Positions 1 to 42,195 are shown, counted from the stretch's first letter. The stretch is 64,000 nt of DNA from an uncultured bacterium (GCA_963729625.1 CAVSOU010000011.1:480001-544000), one strand, 5' to 3'. Translations and numbers: made by a program. Notes: generated by a model not told the origin, from the sequence alone.

Positions 1-144
1 AGCGTGCTCAGCGATGGGGTGCTAGAATCTGGGCATCAAGCGCTGTGAGCGCGTTGCGCGTCGCGATCCCCGGGCTCGGCCGGCGACCATCGGCGGCACA
101 CGTTCGAAACCCGAGCTACGCAGCGCGTAGCGGGAGGTGAAGGC

Positions 145-1377
145 ATGAGCCTGCGACATCGAGGTGCTGCAGGAGATGTGACGCTTCGTCTGGTCGTAGC
201 CCTGGTCGTTGCACTTGGCTGGGCGCTTCCCCGCGCGGCTCCAGCACGCGCCGTTCCGGCGCATGCACCTGCGAACAACGTGTATGTCGCGGACTTCACC
301 GGCTCCTTCAATGCGGGAAACCCGCAGGCGGCGAAAGCATCCGGGATCAGCGGAGGCTTGACGCAGTGGCTGGCGACGTTGCTCGAGCAGAAGTATCCGT
401 GCGCAACAGTCGATACCGCGGCAGATTATCACGAGCTGCTGAACTGGGAGAGGCAAAGAGAGCTGTTGGGCGGTGAGACGCCCGAGCAGCAAGGACAAAC
501 GCTCGAGAATATCGCGAAGGATATGGGCAATACGGGTACGTTCGTCTATGGCAGCTACGCGGTAGTGGGCAGCCAGTATACGGTGTTCATCAACGTCATG
601 GACGCCGCCACGGCGCAGGTAGTGGACCGGCAGATGGCGACCGTGAAGGGCAGCGACGCCAGTGTGATGCTCGTTCTTGTCTCACAGACAGTGGGTAAGC
701 TCTCCGTGGCGCTGTGCAACGCCCACTGGACCGGCTCGATCACTATCACCACGACAAGCAATACCAGCACGACCAAGCGTGACTCGTACACTCCTATGGG
801 ACCAAGCGCCGGAAAGAAGAACAAGTCCACCAACACGTCTGCTCATCAGTATCGTAGTGAAACCTCGCTCACGCTGCTGCCCCCTAAACTGTCCCAACAG
901 TCCGGAACTGCTTCCCCCAGAGTACTGATCTCGCGAGACTACTTTGAGCGCTCCGACGACACGTTCAAGGAGTCCGGGTCGATCTACTGCAACTACAAGT
1001 GGCGACCCTGGAACAAATCGACCGAGGAGGTCCAGACGACGAAAGGCCATGACTTGTGGAAGGACACGATTAGCATCGACCTGGACACCGACACCGGCCG
1101 CTTCGAGATCGGCTACTCCCTGCGCGCCGCAACCGCACAGTATTCGGATGAACAAACCTGGAACTATCCTTCGCCTGACTGCGGCAGCACCAGGGCCAAA
1201 GCACCACCGTCCGACATCCACTCCGTATCGTGGAACGACGACGAGACCGAGGACGTGGATGGCCGCTTCGACCCCAAGCACCCGGATGCCGTACATAGCA
1301 GGGTCGTCACGCACCTCGGCGACAGCACGACGACGACCGTGGTCGACCTCACGCTGGTGACGCCCAAGAAGAGATAG
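145..1377 (+). CDS. Secreted hypothetical protein; N-terminal CsgG/TolB_N-like alpha/beta domain and beta-rich C-terminus
   Basis: 410-aa ORF with GGAGG RBS upstream and a signal peptide (LVVALVVALGWALPRAAPARA). Pattern VYVADF...ELLNWERQRELLG...FVYGSYAVVGSQYTVFINVMDAATAQVV resembles CsgG/TolB_N-type domains. Confidence 0.6.
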   Translation: MSLRHRGAAGDVTLRLVVALVVALGWALPRAAPARAVPAHAPANNVYVADFTGSFNAGNPQAAKASGISGGLTQWLATLLEQKYPCATVDTAADYHELLNWERQRELLGGETPEQQGQTLENIAKDMGNTGTFVYGSYAVVGSQYTVFINVMDAATAQVVDRQMATVKGSDASVMLVLVSQTVGKLSVALCNAHWTGSITITTTSNTSTTKRDSYTPMGPSAGKKNKSTNTSAHQYRSETSLTLLPPKLSQQSGTASPRVLISRDYFERSDDTFKESGSIYCNYKWRPWNKSTEEVQTTKGHDLWKDTISIDLDTDTGRFEIGYSLRAATAQYSDEQTWNYPSPDCGSTRAKAPPSDIHSVSWNDDETEDVDGRFDPKHPDAVHSRVVTHLGDSTTTTVVDLTLVTPKKR

Positions 1378-19050: not shown

Positions 19051-20325
19051 CTACCGGCGCCAGAAGCGCCTGCCTCCGGCAAGCGACACCTTGCGGTGCG
19101 GGGGCACGTCCTCGACTTCGACGCTGGGATCACCCGCGAGGAAAGAGGCCAGATCGCGGATGTTCTGGCTGAGAGGAGCGTCGGGACTGCTGAGCATAAA
19201 CGGTATACCCTCGGTCGCCGCCGCGGTTGCACGCCGGCCGTCACTTACCACGCGCCAGCGAAGCTCCCGCTTGAGGAACGTCTCGATGTCCGCGATGTAG
19301 CCCGGCTCCACACTATCCGAACGCATGAGCACCGGGATGATTTGCTCCTCCTTGTAGTGCAGCAGACTCGCCACCCGCAGAAATGCATAGAGGTTCTTGA
19401 TCGCCGGCATATCCGGTCCGAAGGGCACGAGAATGGTATCCGCCATTTCGAGCGCGGCCAACACGCGATCGTCGAATCCGGGCCACGTGTCCACGACGGT
19501 GTACGTAAACTGCCGGCGCAGCATTGCCAGGATATGTCTGACGTGCTCGACGCGGATGCGGTCACCCTCTTCCGGCTGGAGGGGCGCCAGAAGCACGCTC
19601 AGACCGGAGCGGTGTCGTACAAGTGTCTCGGCAATGACCTCTGCGGTAATCTCGTGCGCTGGAGCGGCAAGCTCCAGCATCGTGCGCCCAGGAGGCAAGC
19701 TGAGAAACACGTCATGGCTACCGAAGCTGATGTTGCCGTCGACAAGCGATGTCGCGTGCTTGGCAACCTGCAGGGCGATGGCGAGATTCACGGCAAGCGT
19801 TGATGAGCCGACCCCGCCTTTGGGGCTGAAAACGACGATGATGTGATGTGACTTGCCGGTGTCTCCGGCAATTGGCGTGTCGTCCAGCTCGGTGGACTGG
19901 TCGCTCTGCAACCGTGACAGCGCGTCAAGCGAGCCGAGCAGCCCGTCCAGCTCCTGGCGCACCGCGACAACTTCCTCAAGCAAATCGGCAATGGAGAAGG
20001 GAAACGGGAGCAGTCGCCGAACGCCCGCGGCCATCGCTGCCGCCAGAGCGTCAGCGCTGAACGCCACGGAGTATGCGAGGACCGCTGCCCGCGGATAGAG
20101 CTCCTGAATGCGTCTGGCATACGCGAGGCGGACCGGCAGGTCGCCGTCCAGTCCAACCAAGAGCGCATCCGGGCCCGACCACCCGGGCATCGCGACGAGC
20201 GGTCGATCACCGGTGACCACGTACAGTGATACCGCGCTGCCGGCTACAGCGTCGTGGAGCTGCGCCGCAACCTGATCATCGCTTTCTACGGCGAAGACTT
20301 CAATAGGGGTCGCATCCGTCGTCAT
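19051..20325 (-). CDS. cpaE: CpaE/TadZ-like protein (atypical receiver plus MinD/ParA-type ATPase)
   Basis: N-terminal REC-like domain (AAMAAGVRRLLPFPF), VFSPKGGVGSSTLAVNLA, LVDGN, GLSVLLAP, VVDT. Confidence 0.75.
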   Translation of the reverse strand: MTTDATPIEVFAVESDDQVAAQLHDAVAGSAVSLYVVTGDRPLVAMPGWSGPDALLVGLDGDLPVRLAYARRIQELYPRAAVLAYSVAFSADALAAAMAAGVRRLLPFPFSIADLLEEVVAVRQELDGLLGSLDALSRLQSDQSTELDDTPIAGDTGKSHHIIVVFSPKGGVGSSTLAVNLAIALQVAKHATSLVDGNISFGSHDVFLSLPPGRTMLELAAPAHEITAEVIAETLVRHRSGLSVLLAPLQPEEGDRIRVEHVRHILAMLRRQFTYTVVDTWPGFDDRVLAALEMADTILVPFGPDMPAIKNLYAFLRVASLLHYKEEQIIPVLMRSDSVEPGYIADIETFLKRELRWRVVSDGRRATAAATEGIPFMLSSPDAPLSQNIRDLASFLAGDPSVEVEDVPPHRKVSLAGGRRFWRR

Positions 20326-20766: not shown

Positions 20767-22491
20767 TTACATCAGCGTAATATGCATCGTGGGATCCACG
20801 CGATGCTCGTCACGGTCGTAGTAGGCCCACACGAGGACAGTTTGTCCCGGATTGAGCGACGTCACATCATGGCTCGTTTGGTTGTGGCGAAGGTAAATAA
20901 TCGTGCTCGGCTGTACGAAGACGGTCAGGGTCGTGCCAGTCCTGAACGGATTGTTGCGGTCGTTGAATCTCACGGTCCGCACCGCCAGGAACTCAGGCGA
21001 CGACGTGAAGTTGATGAACGTGATCTTGGCCTTGAATCGGACCTGCACCAGGTTTGCCAGCGAGGCATCCTTGATCCACGTCGCGGTGAACTGTGCGTTC
21101 ACGAACGTGCCTCTGATCTCCAGCCTGTTGTTCGAGTGCAGATAGCTGACCGGGATCGTGTTGCCGTTGTTACGAACAATCACCGTGCTGGGCGTTACGT
21201 AGACCGGAAGCTGGCCGGGCCGGCACGGACTGGTCATGGCAAGGTTCGGTGAGAGTCCGCCGGTGAACCGAGCCGACTTGATGCACAGCAGGGTCGGAGG
21301 CGTGTTTGGATTCGCCGGAGCGTTGAGCAACCCGGCGAGAGCGATAAGCCCGCTCACCGGTGCCGCAGTGGCGGTCGCCGTCGGCACCGGGGTCGCGGTC
21401 GGCCCAGCGCCGAGCGCGCTGCCCGTCGTGATCCACGAGATATATTCAAACGCGTTGAGCGCGCTGTTGTACAGGCCCTGCGTGGTTACGACAGAACCCG
21501 GACCAATGCCGCCGACGGGATAACCGGAGGTCGCGGCGCCGTTGATGTTGACGGCGGTGCAGGGCGCCTGTGTGTTCGACGGAGCGGTGCAGAACACGGT
21601 GCCGGCGTTGGTCAGGGGCAACGTGAACTGCCCGTTGCTGGGAACCGGAGAATGACTCGAGTTCAGGCTGGTGACCATCACGCTCAGAACCGTCAACGGC
21701 GAACCAACGGCGACGCTCTGCACCGAGCCGGTGAACTGGGTATAGGTCAGGTGCAGCGAATGATCGTCGAGGCTGGCGGCAGTGAACTGCGCGTTGACAA
21801 AACTGCCATGAACTTCCAGCGAATCGCCGGCTCGGAGCTCGAACAGGGCCGAGACACTGTCGTCATTGCGCGTCAGCTTTGTGGTGGGCGTGATGTACAC
21901 CGGCAGCAGGCCGGGCGCGCACGGACTGACCAGAGAGACATTGGGAGTGATACCGCCCACTACCTGTGCCTTGGCGAGGCAGAGCAGAGTCGGGGGCGTC
22001 AACTGGTCGGGCGCCGCGAAAAGTGTTCCCGTCACGTCGAGCTGCGATAGCACCTGCGTTGGCGAGCTAGTCGGGGTCGCGCTGACCGTCACGGTTGGCG
22101 TGGGGACAACGACCGTACCGGTCGCGGTTGCGGTCGGAAGCGGCAAGAGCGACAGATCCTGAATGACGCTGGCGGTGATACCGCCGTTCCTATCGACTAC
22201 GCCTGTGACCTTGAGCGAGTCGTTATCATGCAGGTCCGTCAGATTCGCCGGCGATCCATCTTGTCGCTCAATTTGCGTGCTCACGGAGATCCAGACGGGA
22301 GCTGTCTCGCTGCCCTCCTGAATAAACAGGGACGTCGGTGCAGTTGGCTGCGGCATCGCCACCATCGTGGCCGTGATCGTAATGTTCGCGAGTTGCGCTG
22401 CCGAGACATGAGATGCCGATGGCAGAAGTGGCACTGCTGCGAAAAGCAATGGAGCAAACGCAAGTCCCGTAAGTAACCGCTTGGCGTTCAT
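20767..22491 (-). CDS. Secreted protein with multiple DUF5666-like (OB-fold) domains and Pro/Thr linkers
   Basis: Signal peptide; repeated pattern V.ITP.T.I.R.D....L.EL..GD.LEV.G...F.A..I.D; GGAGG RBS. Confidence 0.7.
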   Translation of the reverse strand: MNAKRLLTGLAFAPLLFAAVPLLPSASHVSAAQLANITITATMVAMPQPTAPTSLFIQEGSETAPVWISVSTQIERQDGSPANLTDLHDNDSLKVTGVVDRNGGITASVIQDLSLLPLPTATATGTVVVPTPTVTVSATPTSSPTQVLSQLDVTGTLFAAPDQLTPPTLLCLAKAQVVGGITPNVSLVSPCAPGLLPVYITPTTKLTRNDDSVSALFELRAGDSLEVHGSFVNAQFTAASLDDHSLHLTYTQFTGSVQSVAVGSPLTVLSVMVTSLNSSHSPVPSNGQFTLPLTNAGTVFCTAPSNTQAPCTAVNINGAATSGYPVGGIGPGSVVTTQGLYNSALNAFEYISWITTGSALGAGPTATPVPTATATAAPVSGLIALAGLLNAPANPNTPPTLLCIKSARFTGGLSPNLAMTSPCRPGQLPVYVTPSTVIVRNNGNTIPVSYLHSNNRLEIRGTFVNAQFTATWIKDASLANLVQVRFKAKITFINFTSSPEFLAVRTVRFNDRNNPFRTGTTLTVFVQPSTIIYLRHNQTSHDVTSLNPGQTVLVWAYYDRDEHRVDPTMHITLM

Positions 22492-22997: not shown

Positions 22998-25900
22998 TTG
23001 AAGGGAAAAACTGTTCGTGTTGCCGTGTTGGCGGCGTTGCTCCCCACCACAGGCTTGACGCTCGCATTCTCGTTGCCAGGCATCAGTACTCCACCAACAC
23101 TTGACGGTCGTGTTGTACTGGTCTCAAGAGGCACCATTACCACCACGCTGACGCCGTCCGGTCAGGCCGCAAACGTGACGACCTACTCGTTGAATTTCTC
23201 GGCCTCGGGCACGGTCAAGTCAGTCAACGTCGTACCGGGTCAGTCGGTCAAGAAAGGCCAGGTTCTTGCTTCAATTGACGATCCATCGTTGCAGCTATCG
23301 CTGATCAGCGATCGGAACGCGCTGAACAATGCTCAGCTGGCTCTGGCAAAGCAACTCGCTCCCCCGAATCCGAACTCACTTGTCCAGTCCCAAGCGTCGC
23401 TCGATCAGGCTCAATCCAAGCTGGCCGCTATGAAGGCAGGCGGCACCGCCGCCTCCATCGCGCAGGCCCGCGCCAACGTGGACTCCGCCAAAGCCAAGCT
23501 CGTGGCGCTGCAATCGGGCACGGCCTCCGCGATCATCTCTGCACAGGCCAGTCTTGATTCCGTTCAACAGAAGCTGGCCGCGATGGAAGCCGGAGGCACC
23601 GCCTCCAGCATCGCCCAGGCGGAAACGACGCTTGCTACGGCCCAGGCCAAGCTGGCAGCCATGCAGACCGGCGGTACGTCCGCGAGCGTCACGCAGGCGC
23701 GTCAAGCGCTCGACGAAGCCAAGACGAAGCTTGCGGTGATGAAGAAAGGCGGCACCCCCGCCAGCATCGCCCAGGCCCGGTCGTCCCTCGAACAGGCCCA
23801 GCTCAAGCTTGCCACAATGAAGAAGGGTGGTACGCCTGTCAGCATTGCGCAGGCCAGGGCTGCACTCGACCAGGCGCAGCTCAAGCTGGCGACTATGGAG
23901 AAGGGTGGCACGTCGACCAGCGTCACCCAGGCCAGGGCTGCGCTCGATCAGGCCCAGCTCAAGCTGGCCACGATGCTCAAGGGCGGTACCGCGGCAAGCA
24001 TCGCCCAGGCCAAGTCATCGCTCGACCAAGCCCAGCTCAAGCTGGCCACGATGCTCAAGGGCGGTACCGCGACCAGCATCGCCCAGGCCAGAGCTTCGCT
24101 CAACCAGGCGCAGCTCAAGCTGGCCACGATGCTCAAGGGCGGTACCGCGACCAGCATAACCCAGGCCAAAGCATCGCTCGATCAGGCGCAGCTCAAGCTG
24201 GCCACGATGCTCAAGGGCGGTACCACGACCAGCGTAGCCCAGGCCAAAGCATCGCTCGACCAGGCACAGCTCAAGCTGGCCACGATGCTCAAGGGCGGTA
24301 CCACGACCAGCATCGCCCAGGCCAGGGCGTCACTCGACCAGGCACAGCTCAAGCTGGCGACCATGAAACAGGGCGGTACCCCGGCCAGCATTGCCCAAGC
24401 CAAGGCATCGCTCGAACAGGCCCAGATCAAGCTGGCGACCATGAAGAAGGGCGGAACGCCGGCCAGCATTGCCCAGGCCAAGGCATCGCTCGAACAGGCC
24501 CAGATCAAGCTGGCGACCATGAAGAAGGGCGGCACCCCCGCCAGTATTGCCCAGGCCAAGGCATCGCTCGAACAAGCGCAGATCAAGCTGGCTTCCATGA
24601 AGCAGGGCGGCACCCCCGCCAGCATCGCCCAGGCCAAGGCATCGTTGCAACAGGCGCAGATCAAGCTCAACGTCATGCAGACGCCTCCTGATCCGCACAC
24701 CGTCGTAGCGGCAAAGGCCAACCTGGACTCAGCGATCCTGAAGCTGACGGCCCTCCAGGCTCCGCCGAACCCGCAGACCGTCGCCCAGGCACAGGCCAGC
24801 CTGGACTCCGCCAAGCAGAAGCTCATCGCCCTGCAAGCCGCTCCTGACCAGAACACCCTTGCTCAGCTTCAGGCGAGCCTGGACTCCGCCAAGCAGAAGC
24901 TCATTGCCCTGCAAGCGCCCGTCAATGCAAACACTCTGGCCTCCGCCCAGGCGAGCCTCGATAGCGCAAAGCAGAACCTGGCCGCGCTCTCCAACGCCGC
25001 GTCGTCGGCAACCGTCGCCTCCGACCAGGCAGGAGTGACACAGGCTCAGAACAATCTGAGCAGCGCGACGACTCCATCAGCTGCGTCGCTCGCCCAGGCG
25101 AATGCAACCCTTCTCGCGGCTCGAAATAAGCTGCAAGTGGATCAGGTCGCTCTATCGCTTCTCGTGCCACCCAACACAAGCGCCATCACCAATCCCACCG
25201 CGCTGCAGACCGCGACGAATACGTATCTGCAAAACCAAGCGCAGGATGAGGCGAATATCGCGAACGACGAGGCCAGCGTCGCGAGTGCGACGGCAGCGTA
25301 TACCGCGCTGACCAACCCGAGCGCCGGCGCGCTGACCCTGGCCCAGCAGCAGTTGACCGCCGCCCAGGCCAAGCTGGCAGCCGACCAGCAGCCAACGCCA
25401 AGCTCGACGGACCTGGCAAAAGCGCAGGACGCCGTCACCCAAGCCCAGGCGTCGCTCGCCAACACGCAGGCCGGCACCACGACGCCGTCCGATATTGCCT
25501 CCGCGCAGGATGCCATCACCTCCGCGCAGGCCTCGCTCAACGCGGCGACCGCCCCGCCGAAGGCTACGGACCTGGCCACGGCTCAGGACGCTCTTGTTTC
25601 CGCGGAGGCCTCGCTCACGACTGCGACGGCACCGCCGGCAGCTACCGACATCGCCTCCGCCCGGGACGCGATCAACTCCGCGAACGCCGCGGTGTATACG
25701 GCGGAGCATCCATACACTGCGCAAGACATCGCGACACAGCAGTCCACGGTGACAAGCGCCGAGGCAGCATACAAGAACGCCCTGCAACCCAACTCGGCGT
25801 CGGATATCGCCACACAGGAACAAGCGGTCAAGACCGCGCAGGTGGCCTATCAGAATGCGCTGCAGCCTAACTCCGCGTCGGACATCGCCACGCAAGAGCA

Positions 25901-27794
25901 AGCGGTCAAGAGCGCGCAAGTAGCCTATCAGAATGCGCTGCAGCCTAACTCGGCGTCGGACATCGCCACGCAAGAGCAAGCGGTCAAGAGCGCGCAAGTA
26001 GCCTATCAGAATGCGCTGCAGCCTAACTCGGCGTCGGACATCGCCTCGCAGGAGCAGGCCGTAGCCGGCGCCAAGGCTGCCTACCAAAACGCCCTGCAGC
26101 CCAACTCTCCGTCCGACATTGCCACCCAGGAGCAGGCCGTGGCCAGCGCCAAGGCCGCCTACCAGAATGCTTTACAGCCTAACTCGGCGTCGGACATCGC
26201 CACCCAAGAGCAAGCGGTCAAGAGCGCGCAGGCCGGCTACCAGAATGCCCTGCAGCCCAACTCGCCATCCGACATCGCCACGCAGGAACAAGCCGTGGCC
26301 AGCGCCAAGGCCGCCTACCAGAATGCCCAGCAGCCTAACTCGCCATCCGACATCGCCACGCAGGAGCAAGTGGTAGCCAGCGCCAAGGCCGCCTACCAGA
26401 ACGCCTCGCAGCCCAACGCAGCGTCGGACATCGCCACACAGGAGCAAGCGGTCAAGAGTGCGCAGGCCGCCTATCAGAATGCGCTGCAACCCAACTCGCC
26501 TTCCGACATCGCCACGCAAGAGCAAGCGGTCAAGAGCGCGCAAGCCGCCTATCAGAACGCCCTGCAGCCCAACTCGGCGTCGGATATCGCCACGCAGGAA
26601 CAGGCCGTGGCCAGCGCGCAAGCCGCCTATCAGAACGCCCTGCAGCCCAATGCGGCCTCCGACATTCGACAGGCGCAGGACGCGGTAACCAGCGCGGAGG
26701 CGGCGTTGGCATCTGCCAAGCAGCCGAACTCTGCCTCGGACATTACCCAGCAGAAGCTCGCAGTACAGAGTGCGCAGGCGGCCTTGGCTGCAGCCAGGCA
26801 ACCGAACACCACATCGGATATCCAGCAAGCGCGAGATTCGGTCACCTCGCAGCAACAGGCGCTCATCACTGCCCAGCATCCCGGCACCGCGACGGATATT
26901 CAGCAAGCTCAGGATTCGTTGATCAGCGCGCAGGCAGCGCTCGACTCGGCCGTCCAACCGAACACCGCGCAGGATATTGCCCAGCAACAAGATGCCGTGA
27001 AGAGCGCGCAGGCGGCGCTGCAGCTGGCGCTTCATCCCTACACCGCGCAAGACATCGCCATCTCGCAGGCGAGCGTCACGGAGGCGCAGCAGTCATTGAA
27101 GGCTGACCAAGCGCTGTTCGCCAGTGAAACGGATATCGTGGCGCCGAGCGCCGGGGTGGTCCAGGTGGTGAACCTTTCGCCCGGACAGGCGTCGTCCAGC
27201 GCCAGCAGTAGCAGTAGCAGCACCAGCACCAGCACCGCGGCCATCCAGATGGCCGATACCAAGGGTCTTGTGGTGACGGCAAGCATCCCTGAAGCCCAGA
27301 TTGGCAGCATACAGCTTGGCGATCCGGTGGCGATGGTCTTCAACGCGTTCCCCAACAGAACGCTCGTCGGCATCGTCAACAGCCTGCCCTTCCAGGCGAC
27401 CACCACGTCGAACGTTACCACCTACCCGATCAAGGTTTCTCTGACGGGGAACCTCAAAGGCATTACGGCCGGCATGACCGCGAACATGACCATTGTCACG
27501 GCGGAGGTGACCAACACGATCGAGGTGCCCACCGCGGCGATTGTCGGCACCGGCACCCGCAGCTTTGTCCGCACACTCGATAAGACGAATAACGAGGTGA
27601 TAACGCCCGTCCAGACGGGAATCAGCGACACAACCTTCACGCAAATCGTCAGCGGCTTGAACGTTGGCGACCGGATCGTCGTACCGACCACCAGCGGCTC
27701 CACCACGACGGGTACCGGCGCGGCCCGCGGCTTCGGTGGCGGCGGCGGCTTCGGCGGCGGAGGCTTCGGCGGCGCCGTACGGATTGGCGGCTAA
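22998..27794 (+). CDS. Giant membrane-fusion (HlyD/MacA/YknX-like) adaptor protein, 1598 aa
   Basis: N-terminal anchor; split lipoyl domain ([25 protein letters not shown] and [19 protein letters not shown]) around a ~1280-aa helical repeat region; beta-barrel [12 protein letters not shown]...GMTANMTI; VPTAAI...VQTGISD...[12 protein letters not shown]; Gly/Phe tail; TGGAGG RBS before TTG. Confidence 0.9.
23757..24692 (+). repeat. 12 homogenised 78-bp coding repeats (outbound arm, ~[26 protein letters not shown])
   Basis: Counted from the translation; 936 bp = 12 x 78. Confidence 0.85.
25719..26654 (+). repeat. 12 homogenised 78-bp coding repeats (return arm, ~[26 protein letters not shown])
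   Basis: Counted from the translation; 936 bp = 12 x 78. Confidence 0.85.
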
Positions 27795-28636
27795 TGGTCA
27801 TGCAACCGACGTCGCTTATCGAGATGCAGCAGATCACCAAGACGTACGTCATGGGCGATCAGGAGGTGCATGCGCTGCGCGGGATCGATCTCCGCATCGC
27901 CGAAGGGGAATTCGTGGCGATCATGGGAGCCTCGGGCAGCGGAAAATCCACCATGATGAATATCGTCGGCTGTCTGGACCGCCCATCTTCCGGCCAGTAC
28001 TACCTCGCGGGCAGGGAGGTGGCGACGCTCAGCGACGATGAACAGGCGCTCATGCGCAATCGTACCATCGGGTTCGTGTTCCAGTCGTTCAACCTGCTCA
28101 GGCGCACAAGCGCCCAGAAGAACGTGGAGCTACCACTCATCTACTCGGGCGTACCTGCCCGCGAGCGTGCGGAGCGCGCCAGGGCTGCCCTCGAGCAGGT
28201 CGGCCTTGGCGCCAGACTCGACCACCATCCTAGCCAGCTCTCGGGCGGGCAGCAGCAGCGCGTGGCGGTGGCAAGAGCGCTGGTAACGAACCCGGCGCTG
28301 ATCCTTGCCGACGAGCCTACCGGCAATCTGGACTCTCAGGTCAGTGCTGAAGTAATGAGTCTCTTTCAAAGACTGAATCTCCGCGGCCTGACGGTTGTGC
28401 TTGTCACGCACGAGAGCGACATCGCGGCCTACGCAAAACGCGTCGTTCGCATGCGCGACGGCCACGTGATGCACGACAGCCAGCCCGATGCCGCGAGAGT
28501 GCCCGAGAGTGCAGTCGCGCTGGGCGAATCCCTGCCGACTACTACGCCGTCGCCCGATGCTCCGGAAGCGCCGGCCGATTCCGGCATGCACCCGTTGCTC
28601 ACGCGTATCTCGCTCGATCGGGAGGGTCCGGCATGA
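27794..28636 (+). CDS. ABC transporter ATP-binding protein (MacB/LolD/YknY type)
   Basis: Walker [51 protein letters not shown]; TAATG coupling to the upstream stop. Confidence 0.95.
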
Positions 28637-29967
28637 ACCCTGCAGGGCAAATCAGGCAGACGCAAAAGCCGTCGCGCAAGGCGCCTCGTATCACGTTCGT
28701 TGGTCAGGCCCTGTCGGTGCTGCACATCGCCACGACAGGCATATTCACAAACAAGGCCAGGACGGTTCTGACCCTGCTTGGCGTCATCATCGGCGTTGCG
28801 TCGGTCATCGTGGCCGTCGGCATCGGCAATGGCTCTGCCACACGGGTCAACAGTCAACTGAGTGCGCTTGGCACGAATCTCGTGCAGATACAGCCCGGAG
28901 GGACATTCTCCGGCGGCGTCCGCGGGGGCGCCGGCTCGGCCAGCACCCTGACCGTCTCCGACGCGCAGACCCTTGCCGACAGCTTGGGTTCGGGCGGCAC
29001 GTTGCCTGACGTGGCCATGGTGGCGCCGGAGTTCAACGTAAACGTGCAGATCGTGGCAGGAGCCCAGAACACGGGCACATCGGCGGACGGCGTATCGCCC
29101 GAATACCTTACGGTGCGCAACGCTCAGGTAGCAACGGGCCGTTTCGTCACCACGCAAGACTTGATGCAGCAGGCGCAGGTCGTCGACCTGGGAGCGACCG
29201 TGATCACCGATCTCGGTCTCGACGCGTCCAGCGCGGTTGGGTCGACGATCACGCTGAGCGGTGTACCGTTCACCGTCATCGGGACGATGGTCTCCAAAGG
29301 AGGCGGGGGAGGGCGCAACCAGGATGATACCGTGTACGTGCCGCTCACCACGGCCGAATACGTGTTGCCGCATTCGTCCGCATCCGGTTCCCTGTCCTCG
29401 ATCGATCTTGAAGCAACACAGCAAGACACCACGAACCAGGCATGGACCGAGGCCGAGTCGATGTTGCGCGGCCTTCACCACCTCCTGTCCTCTCAGAGCG
29501 ATGACTTCAGCGAATTCAACCAGACGACGATTCAGCAGACGGCGGCAGACGTGTCCGGAACGCTGACGACGTTGCTAGCCGGCGTGTCGGCTTGCTCGCT
29601 CCTGGTCGGCGGCATCGGGATCATGAACATCATGCTCGTCACCGTAACCGAGCGCACGCGTGAAATAGGGCTGAGAAAAGCGGTCGGTGCGAGGAAGATC
29701 GACATCCTGTCGCAATTCCTCGTCGAGGCAATCATGATCAGCGGGACCGGCGGCGCTATCGGAGTCGGTATCAGTTTCCTGGTGGCCTGGATGTTTAACA
29801 ATATCTCGACTCTCGCCACCGCGTTTGGAAACTCCGCACCGGTGATCAGTCCGAATTCGGTGATTCTGGCGTTTGGCGTGTCGCTGGCCATTGGTCTGTT
29901 CTTTGGCAGCTATCCCGCCAGCCGCGCCGCCGCACTCGATCCCATCCAGGCCTTACGTTACGAGTAG
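28633..29967 (+). CDS. ABC transporter permease (MacB/FtsX/YknZ type)
   Basis: [16 protein letters not shown], extracytoplasmic domain, [47 protein letters not shown]; ATGA overlap. Confidence 0.95.
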
Positions 29968-29989
29968 TCATCCTCTGGAGAAAGAAACG

Positions 29990-31114
29990 ATGAACCAGGG
30001 CACAAAGCTGAATATCAGAACGGCAAGCGTCGTGCTTGTCTTCGTGCTTGCCGTCGGGCTGGCGTTCTACGGCGGCCGCGTGTATCAGAACAACGTCGAT
30101 AAGCCGCTGTTCACCCAGTACAATCCGCCAACTACCACTGGTGGCACTGGCGGCGCGTCTGGGAGGGGGAGCAGCTACTTCGGCGCGGTGTCGTCCGGTG
30201 GCTCGCAAATCCAGGCAGCTCTCGCCTATGCCACGCCGCCAGGCAGCACGACCTCCCAGAGCGGCGGCACGGCGAACGGCACATCGGGAGGCCAGACCGG
30301 TACCGGTGCGACGGGAGGCCAGACCGGTACCGGTGCGACGGGCGGTCAGGGCGGTACCGGTGCGACGGGTGGTCAGGGCGGTACCGGCGCGACGGGTGGT
30401 CAGGGCGGTACCGGTGCGACGGGTGGTCAGGGCGGCAGTGGCACAACTGGGGGTCAATCCACCGGCGCTGCGACCGATTCAACCGAGGTGGCCGGCACCC
30501 TCGTCAGCTTGGCCAATGGGAAGCTGACAATCAAGACGAGCCAGGGCGCCAATCAGACCGTGTCCACGACCGCGTCGACGACGTACTATGACGCGCAGAA
30601 GGCAACCAGCAGCGCAATTACCAAGGGTCAAAACGTGACCATCAGTATGGCCGCAAGCGGCTCCTCGCAGGGATTTAGCGCGGGTGACATCACGATCGCG
30701 CCGCCCGGCGCCCTCTACGGCTACGTCAAGCAGCAGGCGCCTGCGGCCGGAGGATTCGGTTTCTCGCCGGCCGGCACTGTCGTGTCCCTGAGCGGCAGCA
30801 CGCTAACCCTGCAGACCAGTACCGGCCGCAGCCTGTCGATCTCGATCGACAATTCCACGGCGGTCTACCAACTGGTAAAGACGACCAGTAGCGCCATCCA
30901 CGCCGGAACAACGGTCTCGGCGCTCAAGGACACGAGCGGCGCCACGGCCCTCAATGTGGTGGCATGTTCATTGGATGGCATGGTCGCCTCGCTCACGACT
31001 CCTCGCGCACGCGGCGCGGGAGGTTTTGGCGGGGGCAGCGGCGGCACTGGAGGCTATGGCGGTCAGGGCGGCCAGGGCGGCGGCCAGAGCAATCCGAACG
31101 GGAACGGCAGCTGA
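29990..31114 (+). CDS. Membrane-anchored/secreted Gly-Thr-rich protein with DUF5666-like domains
   Basis: N-terminal hydrophobic segment, GGQGGTGAT repeats, two beta domains (AGTLVSL..GKLTIKT / AGTVVSLSGSTLTLQT), Gly-rich tail; GGAG RBS; last gene of the ABC operon. Confidence 0.7.
   Translation: MNQGTKLNIRTASVVLVFVLAVGLAFYGGRVYQNNVDKPLFTQYNPPTTTGGTGGASGRGSSYFGAVSSGGSQIQAALAYATPPGSTTSQSGGTANGTSGGQTGTGATGGQTGTGATGGQGGTGATGGQGGTGATGGQGGTGATGGQGGSGTTGGQSTGAATDSTEVAGTLVSLANGKLTIKTSQGANQTVSTTASTTYYDAQKATSSAITKGQNVTISMAASGSSQGFSAGDITIAPPGALYGYVKQQAPAAGGFGFSPAGTVVSLSGSTLTLQTSTGRSLSISIDNSTAVYQLVKTTSSAIHAGTTVSALKDTSGATALNVVACSLDGMVASLTTPRARGAGGFGGGSGGTGGYGGQGGQGGGQSNPNGNGS
30287..30436 (+). repeat. 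27-bp tandem coding repeat (GGQ[T/G]GTGAT, about 5.5 copies)
   Basis: Read directly from the sequence. Confidence 0.85.
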
Positions 31115-35312: not shown

Positions 35313-35934
35313 GTCTCTCTCCTTGTGGCTCAACCCGAATGCGGACCGGCCCGGCCGGTTACTGCTTGGCTTGCCAGGGCATGTCGTAACTCATTCCCTC
35401 CTTTGCTACCCACCACGAGGTGCTCCAGTGCCGGGGGCGAGAAGTGCCGGTTTCAATGGCAGCCGCCGGCCGGTTCCATCTTCACTCTGCGCCTCACACG
35501 ACCCTGCCCGCCACACAGGCCGGCACATGAGAGTGCATCTGGACTCACATGATCCTGTGGGCATCCGGGCGCCCGGGCGCCGGCGCGTTGGACATACCAG
35601 AAGCGTGATCCGGTTCGGGGCTGGCGTGCCCTGGACCGCGGGCATCGTGCACGCCCCTGTCCGTCATGCCGACGAGACGGCCGCGGTCCTGCTCGGCCTG
35701 CGATCACATAATCCGGCTATGCCCCGCCGCAAAGGGCACGTCACGGCCATAGGCCCCGAAGAACTACAATGGGCGATCGCCTCTTGCGCCGGCTTGCCCG
35801 GAACGGTATGCTCGGAGCGGACGCGGATCCGGTGTAGCTCCTGCCCAGTTGGCGACGAGCGTCTGGCCCACAAGGTGTGAAGCGACAGGGACCGCCGCCG
35901 CCGGGCAGGCCAGGCACAGCCGCGTGGAGGTGCT

Positions 35935-37506
35935 ATGCAGCGCGGGGATCCTGGTCCCCCCTTCGCGGTGCTGCTGCGACGCTACCGGGAGGCTGCCGGC
36001 CTGACCCAGGAGGCACTGGCCGAGCGGGCAGGGGTGAGCGCGCGTGCCGTCAGCGACCTGGAGCGCGGGATCAATCGCGCGCCCCGCGTGGATACGCTCG
36101 GACTGCTGGCGAGGGCTCTCCAGCTCACGCCGGAGGACCGCGCCCGGTTGGAGGCGGCTGCCAGCGGGGTGGACGAATACGGCGTCGCCCTCACGGGCGC
36201 CGAAGGGCCAGGCACACCCACCACGTCCGATCAGGGGCGAGCGACGCGCACAGCGCGCACCCCGGTTGCCTTCCTCTCGTACGCGGCGGAGGACGGTGCG
36301 TTCGCGACACGGCTGCGGAGCGATCTGGCCACGCACGGTGTCACCGCCTGGGCCGACCGCGCCGAAGCGCGGACCGGATCCGGGCAGCCGGAGGCACTGC
36401 AGGCGGCCATACGCGCCTGCCCGGCGGTGCTGCTGGTGGTCTCTCCTGCTGCCCGCTCCTCGCACTGGGTCGGCAGGGAGCTGGGCCTGGCCGAGATGTA
36501 CGGCCGCCCGATCGTGCCCGTCTGGTCGGCCGGGGAGCAGTGGCTCGATTGCGCGCCGGCGGCGCTGGCCGGCGTGCCCTACGTGGACGCCCGTGGGTCC
36601 CGCTACTCCGAGGCGACCGTCGCGCTCGTGGCGGTGCTGGGCACGGTAGGCGCCGGCTCTGGCCGGGAGGACACGCCAAGCGCGACGCCGACACTGTTTG
36701 TGCCGCGCAACCCGTACAAAGGCCTGCGCGCGTTTGGTGAGGAGGACTCGGGCGACTTCTTCGGGCGGACCGCTTTCGTGCAAACGCTGGTGGAGGCGGC
36801 GGCGGCCACCCTCGCCCCGACACAAGCGGCGGCGCCCCGCCTGCTGGCCGTGGTGGGACCCAGCGGCTCGGGCAAGTCCAGCCTGGTGCGCGCCGGGCTC
36901 ATCCCGCGCCTCAAGGCGGGCGCTCTGCCTGGCAGCGACGGCTGGGTCTACCTCGATCCGGTCCTCCCCGGCGCCCGGCCCCTGGAGGCCCTGGCCGTGG
37001 CCCTGGCAGGCAAGCTCGACCGCAGCATCCATACTCTGTGCGAGGACCTCGGCGACGACGTCGCCCGTGGCCTGCACCTCTGGGCGCGGCAACTGGCGCC
37101 TCATCCCGACCAGCATGTGGTGCTGGTGATCGACCAGCTCGAGGAGCTGTTCACGCTCACCACGGATGAGGAGGAACGCCGGCAGTTCATCGACCTCCTG
37201 CTCACCGCGTTCGGTGAGCCGCGCGGCCCTCTGCTGGCCATCCTCACCCTGCGTGCCGACTTCTACGACCGGCCGATGGCCTATCCCGCGCTGGGCGCGG
37301 CGTTGGAGGCACGGAGCAGGTCGGTGCTGCCGCTGAGCGTGGCCGAGCTGCGGGAGGCCGTCGAGCGGCCCGCTGCCCTGCCCGACGTGCGGCTCGACTT
37401 CGAGCCCGACCTGGTGGGCGACCTGCTCTTTGAAGTGGCAGGGCAGGCGGGGGCGCTGCCGCTGCTGGAGTTCACCCTCGAGCAGCTCGCTGACCGCCGG
37501 CAGGGA
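35935..37506 (+). pseudogene. 5' part of an IS-interrupted XRE-HTH / TIR / STAND NTPase / TM / WD40 gene
   Basis: XRE HTH (LLRRYREAAGLTQEALAERAGVSARAVSDLERG), TIR (AFLSYA...SHWVGREL), NPYKGLRAF...FFGR, Walker A GPSGSGKSS, Walker B VIDQLEELFT, LRADFY, GALPLLEFTL; GGAGG RBS. Confidence 0.9.
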
Positions 37507-37843
37507 TTCGGAGTTGATCCGGTTCGGTGGAGGGATTGAGACTAGGTGGTTAGTCGCAAGGTACCTCCTTTCGTCGCGCGGAGAAAAGGCCGTGCTGGCA
37601 CGTCCGCGCTGCCTGTTTCGGTCGGAGGTGTGACCCTTCCGGCACCCCCTGCTGCGTCGTCGGTGCGGCGCGGGGGACGGTGATGGACGATCTGAACGCT
37701 GGCGCCCCGCGCCGCCCTCCAGCCTAGCAGGGGGGCCCGCCGGCGGGTCAACCCCGCTCCCTGCACGACGGCGCCGCTTTTGCCGGGCACGGGGAGGAGA
37801 CGGCGGCCGGTGGGTGCCGATGATGGGACGAGCAGGCAATGGT

Positions 37844-38713
37844 TCAGGCTGCGCATGCTGCCGCCTCTCGTTCGTAGGCTGCCGGACTCTGGTAGCCCAG
37901 GGCGGAATGCCGGCGATGGGTGTTGTAGAAGCCCTCGATAAAGTCAAAGACCGCCAGACGGGCGGCGGCCAGGCTGGGGAAGGTGTGGCGAGCCAGCAGC
38001 TCGGTTTCCAGGGTGGCGAAAAAGCTCTCGGTGATCGCGTTATCGTAACAATCCCCCACCGAACCCAAGGACGGCAGGACGCCGGCCAGTTGACAGCGCT
38101 CGCCGAAGGCCACGGACGTGTACTGGCAGCCGTGGTCGGAGTGATGGATGACCCCAGCGGCAGGGCGGCGGGTGGCGATGGCCATGTCCACGGCGTCCAG
38201 GACCAGCTCGGTGCGCAGATGATCGGCCATGGCCCAGCCAACAATCTTCCGGCTGAAGACATCGAGCACGACTGCCAGGTAGAGGAAGCCGTCCCAGGTC
38301 GGGATGGCGGTGATGTCGGCCGTCCAGAGGCGATTGGGTGCCCTGGCCACGAACTGCCGTTGCACCCGGTCGGGCACGGCTGTGGCCGTCGCCGCGCGCT
38401 CGGTGGTGACGACGAACCGTCGACGATGGCAGCCCACCAGTCCGGCACCCCGCAGCAACCGCGCCACGCGCCGGCGGCCGCAGTGTACCCCGGCCGCACG
38501 CAGCTCGGCATGGATGCGTGGTGCCCCATAGGTCCGCCGGCTCGCCTCGTGCGCCGTGCGGATGCGGACCAGCAGTGCTGCGTCCGCTTGCGCCCGGGCC
38601 GACGGTCCGCGCGTGCGCCATGCATAGTAGCCGCTAGGGGAGACACCCAGCACCCGGCAGAGCATGGCCACGGCATGAAAGGCCTTCTCGCACGCGATGA
38701 ACGCGAAGATCAT
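37844..38713 (-). CDS. IS3-family transposase OrfB (DDE/rve)
   Basis: MLCRVLGVSPSGYYAW, YGAPRI, WTADIT, DVFSRKIVGW, HHSDHGCQY, DNAITESFFATLETE, YNTHRRHSALGY. Confidence 0.95.
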   Translation of the reverse strand: MIFAFIACEKAFHAVAMLCRVLGVSPSGYYAWRTRGPSARAQADAALLVRIRTAHEASRRTYGAPRIHAELRAAGVHCGRRRVARLLRGAGLVGCHRRRFVVTTERAATATAVPDRVQRQFVARAPNRLWTADITAIPTWDGFLYLAVVLDVFSRKIVGWAMADHLRTELVLDAVDMAIATRRPAAGVIHHSDHGCQYTSVAFGERCQLAGVLPSLGSVGDCYDNAITESFFATLETELLARHTFPSLAAARLAVFDFIEGFYNTHRRHSALGYQSPAAYEREAAACAA

Positions 38714-39012
38714 CGCCGGGGTAGCCCCGTCTCCTGGGCGAAGAAGGCCGCGGCTTTTAGCAAGATTTCCCGCTCTTCCCGCAGGATGCGATTCTCCCGT
38801 CGCAGCTGGCGCATCTCCTCCGTCTCTTGCGTGGTCAGGCCGTCGGCACGACGGCCTTCATCAACATCGGCTTGCCGCACCCACAGACGCAGTGTCTCGG
38901 TTGAAACCTCCAGGCGGCGGGCGATCTCTGCCGCCGGCCTCCCGCTGCTCCGCACCAGCCGGATCGCCTCAGCGCGGAACTCGCGTGGATAGGGGGCATG
39001 ACTCTTTGGCAT
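38710..39012 (-). CDS. IS3-family transposase OrfA (HTH)
   Basis: YPREFRAEAIRLV...IARRLEVSTETLRLWVRQ...LRRENRILREEREILLKAAAFFA; ATGA overlap with orfB. Confidence 0.95.
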   Translation of the reverse strand: MPKSHAPYPREFRAEAIRLVRSSGRPAAEIARRLEVSTETLRLWVRQADVDEGRRADGLTTQETEEMRQLRRENRILREEREILLKAAAFFAQETGLPRR

Positions 39013-39078
39013 GATGGAACCTCCTCTTCTTGTTCAGTACCAAGCGTTGAGGTCTCCACCAAGTCGGATCAGGTCCAA

Positions 39079-41907
39079 TCGACCCTGACCCAAGCCGCCT
39101 ACAGGGAGCTGGGCGGGGTCAGCGGCGCGCTGAGCCGGCAGGCCGAGGCGACCTACACCGCTCTTCCCACCGACGAGCATCGACGGCTGGCCCGCGCCCT
39201 CTTCCTGCGCCTGATCGACCCGGGCGCCACCGAGCAGGACACCACCCGCCGCCGGGCGGCAATGAGCGAATTGGCCCTGCCCGAGGAGCACGAGACCACC
39301 TTGATGCGTGAGGTCGCCGACGCCTTCGTGGCGGCGCGAATGCTGACGGCGAGCGAGCAGGGCGGCACCAGCCGGCTGGAGGTCAGCCACGAGGCACTCA
39401 TCCGCGAGTGGGCGCGCCTGGCTGGCTGGCTGCGCGAGGCGCGCGAGGACGTGCGCCTGCAGCAGAGCGTCAGCGCGGACGCAGCGACCTGGGCAGCGCG
39501 GGGCCGGCCGGCGGACCATTTGTACCGCGGCAGTGCGCTGGCCGAGGCACAGGGTTGGGCGGCGCGGAACACGCCGAGCGCCGAGGAGCAGGCCTTCATG
39601 GAAGCGGCGGCAAGAGAGGAGCGGGAGCAGGCGGCGGCGGAGCGGGAGCGGCAGGCGCGCGGGCTGGCCCTGGCACGCGTGGCAGCCACCCGGCTGCGCC
39701 TGCTGGCTGGCGTGCTGGCCCTCTTCCTGGCAGTCGCCGCGGGCCTGGGCGTGGTCGCTCGCAACAACGCCTCGGTGGCCTCGGATGAACGGGCACGTGC
39801 GGTGGCCGCCCGCGATGCGGCGGTCGCCGAGCTGGCGCGCGAGCTGGGTCTGCGGGCCGGCACGCTCCTGGACAGCGACCTGCGGGTCGCGTTGCTGCTG
39901 AGCGCGGAAGCCGATCGGCTGAGCAGCTCGGCGGAGACCCATGCCGACCTTATCCGCGCCATCGACTACCGTCCCCGGCTTCTGTCGTTTCTCACCGCGC
40001 AGGCTGGCCCCGTGCGGAGCGTCGCCTTCAGCCCAGGAGGAGCGATCCTGGCGGCAGGGAGCGACGACGGCACGATACGGCTGTGGGACGCGCGCAGCCG
40101 GCAGCCCCTCGGTCCGCCGCTCGCCGGCCATACCGAGTCGGTGAGCAGCCTAGCCTTCAGCCCGGATGGCACGGAGCTTGCCTCGGCGAGCAACGACGGC
40201 ACGGTGCGGCTGTGGGAGGTGGCCCGCCAAAGGCCCCTCGCGCCACCGCTGGCGACAGAGGGAGGCCCCGCGACCAGCGTGGCCTTCAGCCCCAATGGCA
40301 AGATCCTTGCCGCCGGCGACAGTGCCGGCTCGATCCGGCTCTGGGACGTCGCGGGCCGCCAGGCGCTCGCTCCCCTCCCGCAAGGGGGGCTCTGGTACGT
40401 GTATCACGTAGCCTTCAGCCCGGACGGCAGGATCCTGGCCGCCTGCGGCGAAGGCGGCACCATCGCGCTCTGGGACGTGGCGCGCCATATGCTCCTCCCG
40501 CCCTTGCGCGGCGGGCCCAGCTTCCTGGCGCAGAGCCTGGCCTTCAGCCCCGACGGCCGCACGCTGGCCGCCGGCAGCGAGACAGGCGCGATCCTGCGAT
40601 GGGATATGGCGAGCCGGCGGTTCTCCGGCCGGGTGCTCGCCGCGGGCTCCGGTCCGGTGTACGACATAGCCTTCAATCCCAATGGCACGGTGCTTGCCGC
40701 CGGCGGCCAGGACGGCATCATCCGGCTGTGGGACGCGGCGACCTGGCAACCACTCGATGCGTCCCTCACCGGCCATGCGGGTCCGGTGGACGGCCTCGCC
40801 TTCAGCCCCGACGGCCGGACGCTCGTGTCCGCCGGCGACGACGGCACGCTGCGCCTCTGGGACGCCACGGGCGCAGGCGTGCCCGGCCGGGTGCTGGCCG
40901 GCCACAGCGGTCAGGCCAATAGCCTGGCCTTCAGCCCGGACGGCACGACCCTGGCCTTGGGCAGCGCCGACGCGACCATCCGCCTGTGGAGCGTATCCAG
41001 CGGCCAGGCGCTCGGTCCACCGCTCGCCGGGCACGCCGGTGCCGTACTGAGCGTGGCCTTCGGTCTGGACGGCAAGAGCCTAGCCTCCACCAGCGCTGGT
41101 CCCGCCACCGGCAGCGCCACGTTCCGCCTGTGGAGCGTGCGGACCGGCCGGCCGCTCGGCCCGGCCCTCGCCGTGCGGGGTGCCGGCAGCGCCGCGTACA
41201 GTCCCGACGGCTCGGTCCTGGCTACGGGCAGCGCCGACGGCACGGTGCGGCTGTGGGATGTGGCGCGCCGCCGGCCCCTCGGCCCGGCGCTCTCCGGGCA
41301 TGGCGGCCGGGTGAATAGCTTGGCCTTCAGTCCCGACGGCCACACGCTGGCCTCCGGCGGCGCGGACGGGACCATTCGCCTGTGGCACGTGGCAACCCGG
41401 CAAGCGCTCGGTCCACCGCTCACGGGGTGCACCGGCCCGGTGTTGGACGTGGCGTTCAGCCCGGATGGCCGGATCCTGGCCTCGGGCAGCGCCGACTGCA
41501 CGATCCGGCTGTGGAATGTGCAGAGCCGGCTGCCGATCGGCCCGCCCCTCGGCCACGCCACCAGCCCGGTGTACAGCGTGGCCTTCAGTCCCGACGGCCA
41601 GTCCTTGGCCTCCGGCAACTCCGACGGCACGATCCAGCTGTGGGACGTGGCGAGCGGGCAGGCGCTTGGTCCGGCCCTCGCCGGGCATGGAGACAGAATC
41701 ATGAGCCTTGCCTTCAGTCCCGACGGCCGGCTGCTGGCCTCGGGCACTGCCGGGGTGTTCGGCGCGCCCCTCCGGCTGTGGTCCATCGGACCGCTGTCGC
41801 TGGCACAGCGTGCCTGTGCGATCGCCAATCGCAACCTGACCGCTCAGGAATGGAAGCAGTACCTCGGCGACCTGCCTTACCAGAGGACTTGCCCCAGCGT
41901 GCATTGA
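39079..41907 (+). pseudogene. 3' part of the IS-interrupted STAND gene: winged helix, TM helix and 14 WD40 repeats
   Basis: YRELGGVSGAL, RALFLRLI, EVSHEALIREWARL, LYRG; TM LLAGVLALFLAVAAGLGVV; 14 [VLI]AFSPDG-type WD40 units; C-terminal RACAIANRNLTAQEWKQY...YQRTCP. Confidence 0.9.
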
Positions 41908-41950
41908 AGCACCACTGTGACATAACCCCGCCCGTGTCTAGCACGAGCAT
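41906..41950 (-). pseudogene. vapC: N-terminal fragment of the VapC PIN toxin
   Basis: MLVLDTGGVMSQWCF, coupled to the antitoxin stop (TGATG), matches a PIN N-terminus; similarity ends at the STAND gene stop. Confidence 0.65.
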
Positions 41951-42195
41951 CAGAAGCGGCGTCCCTCTCCACGCATAGCGCGAAGCTCCTGCTGATTAAC
42001 CGGTGCAACGCTCTGCCGAAGCGCCTTGATCTGCGCGATTGTCGATGCAAAGGAGGCCTCAGCACGTCTATGTGGGGGAACCATATGCGCTACCGGCACG
42101 CCATGACGCGTTATCTCGATCGTCTCGCCACGTGCCACCTCGTCAAGCAAGCGCGCAAGTTGCGTCTTCGCCTCGAATGCTCCAACCTGACGCAT
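41950..42195 (-). CDS. Phd/YefM (prevent-host-death) type II antitoxin
   Basis: MRQVGAFEAKTQLARLLDEVARGETIEITRHGVPVAHMVP; AGGAG RBS. Confidence 0.9.
   Translation of the reverse strand: MRQVGAFEAKTQLARLLDEVARGETIEITRHGVPVAHMVPPHRRAEASFASTIAQIKALRQSVAPVNQQELRAMRGEGRRF

Follow-up and report, generated by a model that had tools for sequence, protein, structure and literature searches.

A MacA-type adaptor of Chloroflexota with a giant hairpin insert built of balanced 26-residue modules

All solved adaptors associated with MacB-type transporters, including two from Gram-positive bacteria, are described as hexameric channels (PMC8277102). One of them, Spr0693, is reported to form a hexameric nanotube on the MacB-like pump of a Gram-positive bacterium and has been proposed to lead substrates away from the membrane; its helical barrel is given as 56 Å high and the whole assembly as ~154 Å (PMC5768738). 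A 2015 review describes HlyD/EmrA-type hairpins as growing by heptads, and remarks that the "extremely large" hairpins of Gram-positive adaptors are not easily accounted for as bridges to an outer-membrane factor (PMC4446572). The lineage described here bears on the role of the adaptor hairpin in bacteria without an outer-membrane channel. We analyzed a 64,000-nucleotide (nt) stretch of an uncultured bacterium (GCA_963729625.1, CAVSOU010000011.1:480001-544000; hereafter the window), which related loci place in Chloroflexota. At 22998..31114 it carries a four-gene ATP-binding cassette (ABC) export operon whose first gene encodes a membrane-fusion (periplasmic adaptor) protein (MFP) of 1598 amino acids (aa), four times as large as is customary. 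Comparison with relatives provides good support for a hairpin in this protein that has been lengthened by matched gains of 26-residue modules. Throughout, nucleotide positions are those of the window, residue numbers are those of the 1598-aa adaptor, and G000 denotes the window's genome.

The four open reading frames (ORFs) of the operon are co-directional on the plus strand, and neighboring frames overlap or are closely spaced. The adaptor gene (22998..27794) begins with TTG; a paralog in a sister genome (G004) has ATG at the equivalent position. Its stop codon is overlapped by the start of a MacB-type ABC ATPase gene (27794..28636, 280 aa; ABC_tran 4e-32, MacB nucleotide-binding domain 1.6e-84), followed by a MacB-type permease with an extracytoplasmic core domain (28633..29967, 444 aa; MacB_PCD 1.7e-38, FtsX 3.1e-21, MacB 2.8e-67) and by a fourth component (29990..31114, 374 aa). 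The last of these frames opens at 29873, and the conserved start in an alignment of five orthologs is the ATG at 29990. We found the same gene order at four other loci of the genus and class. The adaptor is the sole MFP detected in G000 with the HlyD_3 and RND_mfp models and a protein query, and MacB-type permease domains occur at three loci of that genome.

Pfam and NCBIfam scans place the MFP domains of the adaptor exclusively at its two ends. Biotin_lipoyl_2 matches residues 65-94, HlyD_D23 residues 1307-1463, and HlyD_3, the beta-barrel, residues 1380-1485 (E 2.6e-10, with 41.4 bits where the cut-off is 22.2). RND_mfp covers residues 1284-1563. Its alignment extends to position 308 of the 322 in the model and that of NF008606, the MacA model, to 365 of 371, both with scores under their curated cut-offs. 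The lipoyl domain is split by a helical insert, and its halves are recognized on either side. By these domains the protein is almost certainly a MacA/YknX-type adaptor, of ordinary MacA type at both ends. The original prediction, made from the window's sequence, had described a giant insert at the hairpin position of an MFP coupled to a MacB-type pump, and the ORFs and domain scans agree on this. Its further label of a "type-I-like" exporter does not hold: the ABC part is MacB-type, the type_I_hlyD model scores 23.1 bits on the adaptor against a cut-off of 208.65, and the EmrA model, at 28 bits, is also far under its cut-off.

The insert comprises 1286 aa (nt 23277-27134) between the anchors DDP (residue 94) and IVAP (residue 1380), essentially matching the ~1280 aa at 23286-27131 proposed before. 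It is preceded by a hydrophobic N-terminal anchor read from the sequence (residues ~8-27) and the first lipoyl half (~40-93), together encoded at 22998..23276(+). The hairpin N arm follows (residues 94-754; 23277..25259, plus strand), with ~25 modules of 26 aa, then the C arm (residues 755-1379; 25260..27134, plus strand), with ~24 such modules. The second lipoyl half, beta-barrel, membrane-proximal domain, and a GFGGGG tail read from the sequence complete the protein (residues 1380-1598; 27135..27794, plus strand). A single 26-residue register runs from residue ~119 to ~716, becomes irregular at ~691-795, and resumes as a single register to ~1314. The irregular stretch corresponds to a conserved, non-repetitive tip region (residues 691-795; 25068..25382, plus strand), in which the 26-aa register is interrupted and the turn lies at A-N-D 755-757. 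The tip has invariant residues in the four sequences aligned and is the best-conserved part of the insert.

Each module consists of a helix of ~22 residues and a short Gly/Pro linker. N-arm linkers read GGT or PPN/PPD, those of the C arm QPNS, HPY, or HPG. Within the module helices, alanines and the bulkier hydrophobic residues stand at heptad spacing, as read by eye. Counted modulo 26 from the base anchors, Gly and Pro are confined to a few phases: phases 1-4 hold 48 of the 50 such residues in the N arm, and phases 4-7 hold 29 of the 33 in the C arm. A like confinement is seen in the four other proteins analyzed. Since the Gly/Pro phases of both arms lie at 1-7 from the base, the joints of the two arms would be at similar height, within the uncertainty of anchor choice. 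At the DNA level, Tandem Repeats Finder reports a young 78-bp array in each arm: the N arm has 11.9 copies with 86% matches at 23738..24667(+), the C arm 11.4 copies with 83% matches at 25774..26665(+). Weaker 78-bp arrays lie at 24710-24976 and 25489-25682. Identity between adjacent DNA units is 0.83-0.95 at units 8-15 of the N arm and 0.71-1.00 at units 7-16 of the C arm, counted from the tip. On either arm of the G000 adaptor, the recently duplicated zone thus occupies much the same module indices when counted from the tip, in keeping with paired arms.

We measured both arms in five adaptors between three anchors: the point where the first lipoyl half ends, the xND[EN]x motif of the tip, and the motif [IVL]xAPxxGxV. 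Three of the adaptors come from the window's genus (G000, G004, and G001) and two, L060 in G010 and L095 in G017, are relatives from the same class. The G004 and G001 orthologs sit in the same four-gene operon, which is also present in G010 and G017. The N and C arms are 661 and 625 aa long in G000 (1598 aa), 583 and 546 aa in G004 (1469 aa, intact), 504 and 467 aa in G001 (1362 aa), and 302 and 285 aa in both L060 (921 aa) and L095 (935 aa). In global pairwise alignments, all large insertions and deletions between the genus orthologs measure 26, 52, 78, or 156 aa, lie inside the arrays, and have totals that are equal in the two arms: 52 + 26 in the N arm and 26 + 52 in the C arm between G000 and G004, 78 in each arm between G004 and G001, and 156 in each arm between G000 and G001. 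Matched differences in multiples of 26, equal in both arms and found in independent assemblies, speak for a hairpin with antiparallel, paired arms and against an artifact of assembly. We strongly infer from this comparison that the arms pair antiparallel.

The genus species step by exactly three modules per arm (78-79 aa), with 25/24, 22/21, and 19/18 modules in the N and C arms. This step could be due to chance or could reflect a three-module structural period.

Arm equality extends to a paralog, L014 (G004:C8:190000-204000, minus strand 6955-11248), in which one frameshift yields frames of 817 and 643 aa. Its arms, measured by hand from DNA coordinates, are 583 and ~547 residues long, the lengths of the intact G004 copy, and its C-terminal domain is only 58% identical to that of the window's adaptor. 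Directly after L014 comes a permease gene (70% identity), and neither an ATPase gene nor a fourth gene was found within the 14-kb locus.

Tandem 78-bp repeats are hard to assemble, and the giant size might in principle be an artifact of repeat collapse or expansion in a metagenome, or mark a decaying gene. One adjacent pair of C-arm units is 100% identical over 78 nt, the G004 paralog is frameshifted, and among the four other genus genomes searched, the fragmented G002 and G003 gave no match to the adaptor query. Of the public sequencing runs, none listed as RNA, six carry ≤0.16 of the adaptor gene's words; four runs that we assembled gave low-depth contigs with 77-405 nt on the gene, none bridging the repeat arrays. 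However, the repeats have diverged and are only 83-86% alike, and the G000 and G004 assemblies are contiguous (21 and 20 contigs). In three species, assembled independently, the frame is intact at 1598, 1469, and 1362 aa, and the arms keep a constant offset to within 1-2 residues; misassembly would not alter both arms by equal whole modules with the frame kept. An artifact is therefore very improbable; the balanced arms and intact frames indicate genuine repeats rather than arrays inflated by assembly.

The 26-residue rule has a limited range. The insert lengths of 50 wider relatives show no quantization in steps of 26 or 52 residues, which confines the rule to the genus and class.

For structure prediction we used the 921-aa relative L060, for which AlphaFold2 with a 50-sequence alignment gave a model with a mean predicted local distance difference test (pLDDT) score of 76.2 and a predicted template modeling (pTM) score of 0.38. 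The model has beta domains at both ends and, between them, ten helices of ~20-23 residues (133-381), a tip, and ten further helices (447-683), with breaks of 3-6 residues. The tip is formed by helices 390-398 and 403-442 and turns at an SNDES motif homologous to the A-N-D turn of the window's protein. In a Foldseek search with this model, MacA of MacAB-TolC ranked first (9qgy_G, 6.9e-15; 5nik_D, 3.0e-12). The VIA fold comparison likewise returned MacA (5nik_D, Z 17.1; 4dk0, Z 16.1, 321 of 324 residues) and Spr0693 (5xu0_B, Z 14.7, 209 aligned), with full-length MacA aligning to model residues 36..884. The biotinyl carrier domain 2ejf_C aligns across the insert (67..739) with Z 11.3 and a root-mean-square deviation (rmsd) of 1.5.

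The region astride the tip (model residues 257-546) matches antiparallel coiled-coil arms of SMC proteins over 236-260 residues with Z 8.3-8.8. These are the Smc arm 5xg2 (236 of 237 residues on 262-538, Z 8.8), the Smc fragment 5nnv_D (249 residues on 257-545, Z 8.6), and the Smc5/6 arm 8wjo_B (260 residues, Z 8.3). The PrgA stalk covers 494 residues on 128-682 with Z 10.3, a match in which the rmsd is meaningless. No compact bundle occurs among the 50 structural matches listed for the model. The relative's model thus favors an extended two-helix rod without proving it. The original prediction had taken the insert to be an antiparallel alpha-hairpin, and the evidence now points the same way: arm lengths covary in five proteins and a paralog, and the relative's model matches antiparallel rods, the pairing itself being deduced from these.

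The window protein's own center (residues 462-1000), modeled with AlphaFold2 from a four-sequence alignment, shows 20 helices of ~22 residues. The tip is the only confident part of this model (pLDDT 82-88, residues ~701-771). A complex prediction pairing a segment of the N arm (residues 457-560) with one of the C arm (954-1057) gave a score of 0.07 and a mark of 0.34, evidence neither way.

An outer-membrane factor had been reported missing from the window, and we extended this check to the whole genome. G000 has 5.41 Mb in 21 contigs and is 87.47% complete with 5.24% contamination; profile searches of this incomplete genome yielded no match for OEP/TolC (PF02321), Omp85, or LpxC. In the controls, PF02321 matched 7 of 14 reference genomes, and the control genomes behaved as expected. 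Chloroflexales are described as having multilayered envelopes, two species being covered by an amorphous external layer of ~30-50 nm, and the cited account does not deem a classical outer membrane established (PMC7332563). The envelope of Litorilinea is likewise reported as multilayered, and Chloroflexota as lacking BAM (beta-barrel assembly) and lipopolysaccharide (LPS) genes (PMC13319060).

The reading that we consider reasonably probable is a MacAB-like pump in which an antiparallel rod of balanced modules prolongs an exit duct or stalk across the envelope. The pump would be of the YknXYZ or Spr0693-0694-0695 kind, working without an outer membrane and with a conserved fourth, membrane-anchored protein. 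A 26-residue module, made of a three-heptad helix and a Gly/Pro linker, would have been duplicated in tandem to give ~25 modules up and 24 down around the conserved tip, and the arms would pair one module to another, forming a segmented rod of two helices. Selection would keep the arms equal, any gain or loss of modules in one being matched in the other. MacA, YknX, and Spr0693 are hexameric, and by analogy six rods of this kind may prolong the exit duct or stalk and span the thick, multilayered envelope without outer membrane that is typical of Chloroflexota.

At 0.15 nm per residue, a fully extended rod would measure ~75-100 nm in the three genus species (~99 nm in G000, ~87 and ~75 nm in its sisters) and ~45 nm in the class relatives. 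With moderate confidence, we take the rod to be straight and of about this length. A hexameric conduit of ~95 nm is plausible by analogy, and ideas on its substrate and direction of transport would come from analogy alone. Of the ~90-95 nm envelope-spanning conduit first put forward, the length fares well, the matched arms making up to ~95-100 nm fair for a fully extended rod, and the tube is carried over by analogy.

Several points weigh against this reading. Interrupted by Gly-Gly or Pro every 26 residues, the chain might be kinked, flexible, or folded back on itself instead of straight. The rod matches, with Z 8-9 and an rmsd of 12-15 Å, fall in a range that is common for long helices, and extendedness is judged solely from the PDB rods that the relative's model, with its low pTM, resembles. 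The model of the window protein's own center has pLDDT 52.3 and pTM 0.26, so that its packing is not readable. Charge complementarity between the arms, which in G000 speaks for their pairing, is not general: net charges of the N and C arms are +30/-31 in G000, +13/-40 in G004, +11/-10 in G001, and -6/-29 and -6/-20 in the class relatives, so that it is weaker or absent outside G000. At 87% completeness and 5% contamination, the genome does not prove the absence of TolC, and no SLH or sortase genes were found in it, hence no pointer to a particular wall type. The envelope thickness, lumen, substrate, and hexamer are for this lineage drawn purely by analogy.

The same helix breakers would suit modules that fold back into compact helical bundles, for example three per bundle in a spectrin-like manner. 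The insert would still leave and re-enter the lipoyl domain, and the structure would be several-fold shorter than 95 nm. Species steps of exactly three modules per arm fit a three-helix unit, and the AlphaFold2 model of the protein's center is too poor to exclude bundles. On the other hand, the relative's model, the better of the two, is more like antiparallel rods of two helices such as the SMC arms and the PrgA stalk, and differences of 26 and 52 aa occur in the pairwise alignments besides those of 78 aa. The class relatives are shorter by ~13-14 modules per arm, no clear multiple of three, and the hydrophobic stripe is narrow (a/d positions with Ala, read by eye), as in two-stranded MFP hairpins. 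We consider such bundles improbable.

A somewhat less improbable alternative keeps the hairpin extended and dispenses with a sealed duct: the rod would be a stalk, spacer, or tether that places the tip at a distant layer of the envelope. In variants of this reading, the tip would dock to an outer-layer protein or set the spacing of layers, or the rod would pass on the mechanical MacB stroke, as the coiled coils of EnvC and PcsB do for FtsEX. The conservation of the tip and its lack of repeats, together with its standing as the one confident part of the protein's own model, speak for this alternative; by contrast, the turn of the Spr0693 hairpin is described as not traceable (PMC5768738). Frequent Gly/Pro joints also seem ill-suited to a tight 12-helix barrel, and lengths are lineage-specific and kept within genera (g40 and g46, see below), as they would be for a ruler. 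Against a stalk stands the hexameric channel formed by every solved MacB-associated adaptor (PMC8277102), along with the canonical beta-barrel and membrane-proximal domains here. No tip partner was identified, and ~24 joints per arm would pass force poorly.

The reading as a rod that prolongs the pump's exit duct or stalk can be carried further, tentatively and with lower probability than its general form. The adaptor hairpin may be a genetically encoded ruler as well as a duct, in which the number of module pairs is matched to the envelope thickness of the lineage. In this genus, six hairpins of ~24 pairs would then form a nanotube of ~75-100 nm, and the conserved tip would serve in gating or in docking at the outermost layer.

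The fourth protein of the operon follows the permease in all five genus and class operons examined, with 33%-67% identity. It has a transmembrane anchor, a linker rich in Gly, Ser, and Thr, a pair of beta domains, and a tail reading GGFGGG, and next to the membrane it carries the invariant motif FYGGRxYQNNxD..LF..Y.PP. Linker lengths across the five species are 121, 114, 75, 80, and 73 aa; the linker shrinks with hairpin length inside the genus and does not track it beyond. We had to revise the description of this protein as Gly-rich and DUF5666-like. It is Gly-rich, but the window's protein has no DUF5666 (PF18914) match at E ≤ 10; among the five orthologs, one matches (E 9e-7). BLASTP detects no similarity between the fourth protein and the neighboring DUF5666 protein. 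By analogy with YknW in Bacillus, the fourth protein is a candidate accessory subunit. A 27-bp tandem repeat lies in the linker region of its gene (30130-30500; 5.1 copies, GGQGGTGAT units). Gly-rich tails of the GFGGGG type end both the adaptor (27690-27791) and the fourth protein (31020-31111), as well as P0005, L060, L095, and L096, and such tails occur in many Chloroflexota relatives.

The DUF5666 protein itself, secreted and 574 aa long, is encoded divergently upstream of the operon at 20767..22491 on the minus strand (DUF5666 1.1e-11). Its gene occupies the same place in G004 (63% identity) and was not found in the G001, G010, and G017 loci examined; its membership of the export system is uncertain. 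Farther upstream lie a gene for a 424-aa ParA/MinD-like ATPase (19051-20325, minus strand) and a ParB-like gene (13758-14861, plus strand) with ParB_N and HTH_ParB domains. Downstream, the G+C content of 35764-42000 is 70%-72%, compared with 61%-65% in windows around the operon. This region contains a 970-aa minus-strand ORF without Pfam match (35764-38676) and a gene for a 969-aa nSTAND1-WD40 protein (38998-41907).

How widely such adaptors occur bears on the claim that the operon represents a new system. Residues 1285-1570, searched with HMMER against 1.84 billion representatives, matched 20,854 proteins (E ≤ 0.001). Among the 150 best, many have lengths of 570-817 aa, with the barrel beginning at residues 300-520. 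In a Chloroflexota sample, 80 of 401 genomes match at E ≤ 1e-20 (this tally includes G226, G055, and G271, flagged as unpublished, on which no statement here rests). Open frames listed outside the genus measure ~290-1042 aa, most of them ~490-1042 aa; contig ends may have truncated the shortest. Among the 401 genomes, only the window's genus exceeds 1042 aa, with open frames of 1365, 1470, and 1616 aa. Lengths are kept within genera: ~958-1042 aa in eight g40 genomes and 654-668 aa in six g46 genomes. In a scan that took one genome from each GTDB species, frames outside the genus reach 921 aa at most among the best 80 loci, and relatives from Patescibacteria have ~500-585 aa. Class relatives have 11-12 module pairs and the window's genus 18-25.

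A word-indexed protein search gave eight matches with the whole adaptor, none with the tip region, and one with the C-terminal region, missing the known relatives of 921 and 935 aa; for a repetitive protein this search is weak, and we base no claim of uniqueness on it. Our literature searches, in which subscription journals were not covered, found no published description of long-hairpin Chloroflexota adaptors, nor any characterized family of MFPs of this size in print. Since adaptors with frames of ~500-1040 aa are common in Chloroflexota, the window's adaptor is an extreme member of a group and not a new system. Judged from these comparisons, it is the extreme of a widespread, apparently undescribed clade of long-hairpin adaptors in this phylum.

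The same pump with 11, 18, 21, and 24 module pairs, always balanced, is a natural experiment on hairpin length and envelope architecture. Should the rods be both extended and hexameric, they would form a very long self-assembling tube from a simple repeat, with bearing on protein design and on the biology of the Chloroflexota envelope, the layers of which are yet to be defined. If the hairpin is indeed both ruler and duct, it would surpass in length every other export duct made from one adaptor, and would take over TolC's task and more. If the rods are compact or flexible, the balanced gain of modules would still show how the length of a coiled-coil hairpin evolves.

Among described systems, MacA of Escherichia coli and Aggregatibacter actinomycetemcomitans (PDB 5nik, 3fpp, and 4dk0) shares with the window's adaptor the order of anchor, split lipoyl domain, hairpin, beta-barrel, and membrane-proximal domain. 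The partner genes are MacB-type in both, MacA is the best structural match of the 921-aa relative's model, and 4dk0 is the only significant PDB sequence match besides 4l8j (E 7e-4). However, MacA chains have ~340-370 residues, compared with 1286 in the insert alone here, and the MacA tip docks to TolC, for which we found no gene in G000. The helices of the MacA hairpin are continuous, whereas those of the window's protein are broken every 26 residues.

HlyD/EmrA-type adaptors and those of Gram-positive bacteriocin exporters also have unusually long helical domains. They are paired with HlyB-type or major facilitator superfamily transporters and lack a membrane-proximal domain; here the transporter is MacB-type and the hairpin is built of 26-residue modules. 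Spr0693-0694-0695 of Streptococcus pneumoniae and YknWXYZ of Bacillus are MacAB-like pumps of monoderms, likewise with a separate MacB-type ATPase and permease, a hairpin MFP, and no outer membrane. If extended, the rod described here would be ~17 times as tall as the Spr0693 barrel (~95 nm against 56 Å), a ratio that had been stated as ~50-60. YknWXYZ has a fourth membrane component too, but YknW is described as having four transmembrane segments (PMC8277102), compared with the single-pass, Gly-rich beta-domain protein here. The other long-hairpin adaptors of Chloroflexota (P0005, L060, and L095) share the operon type, the matched modules of 25-26 residues, and the Gly-rich tail.

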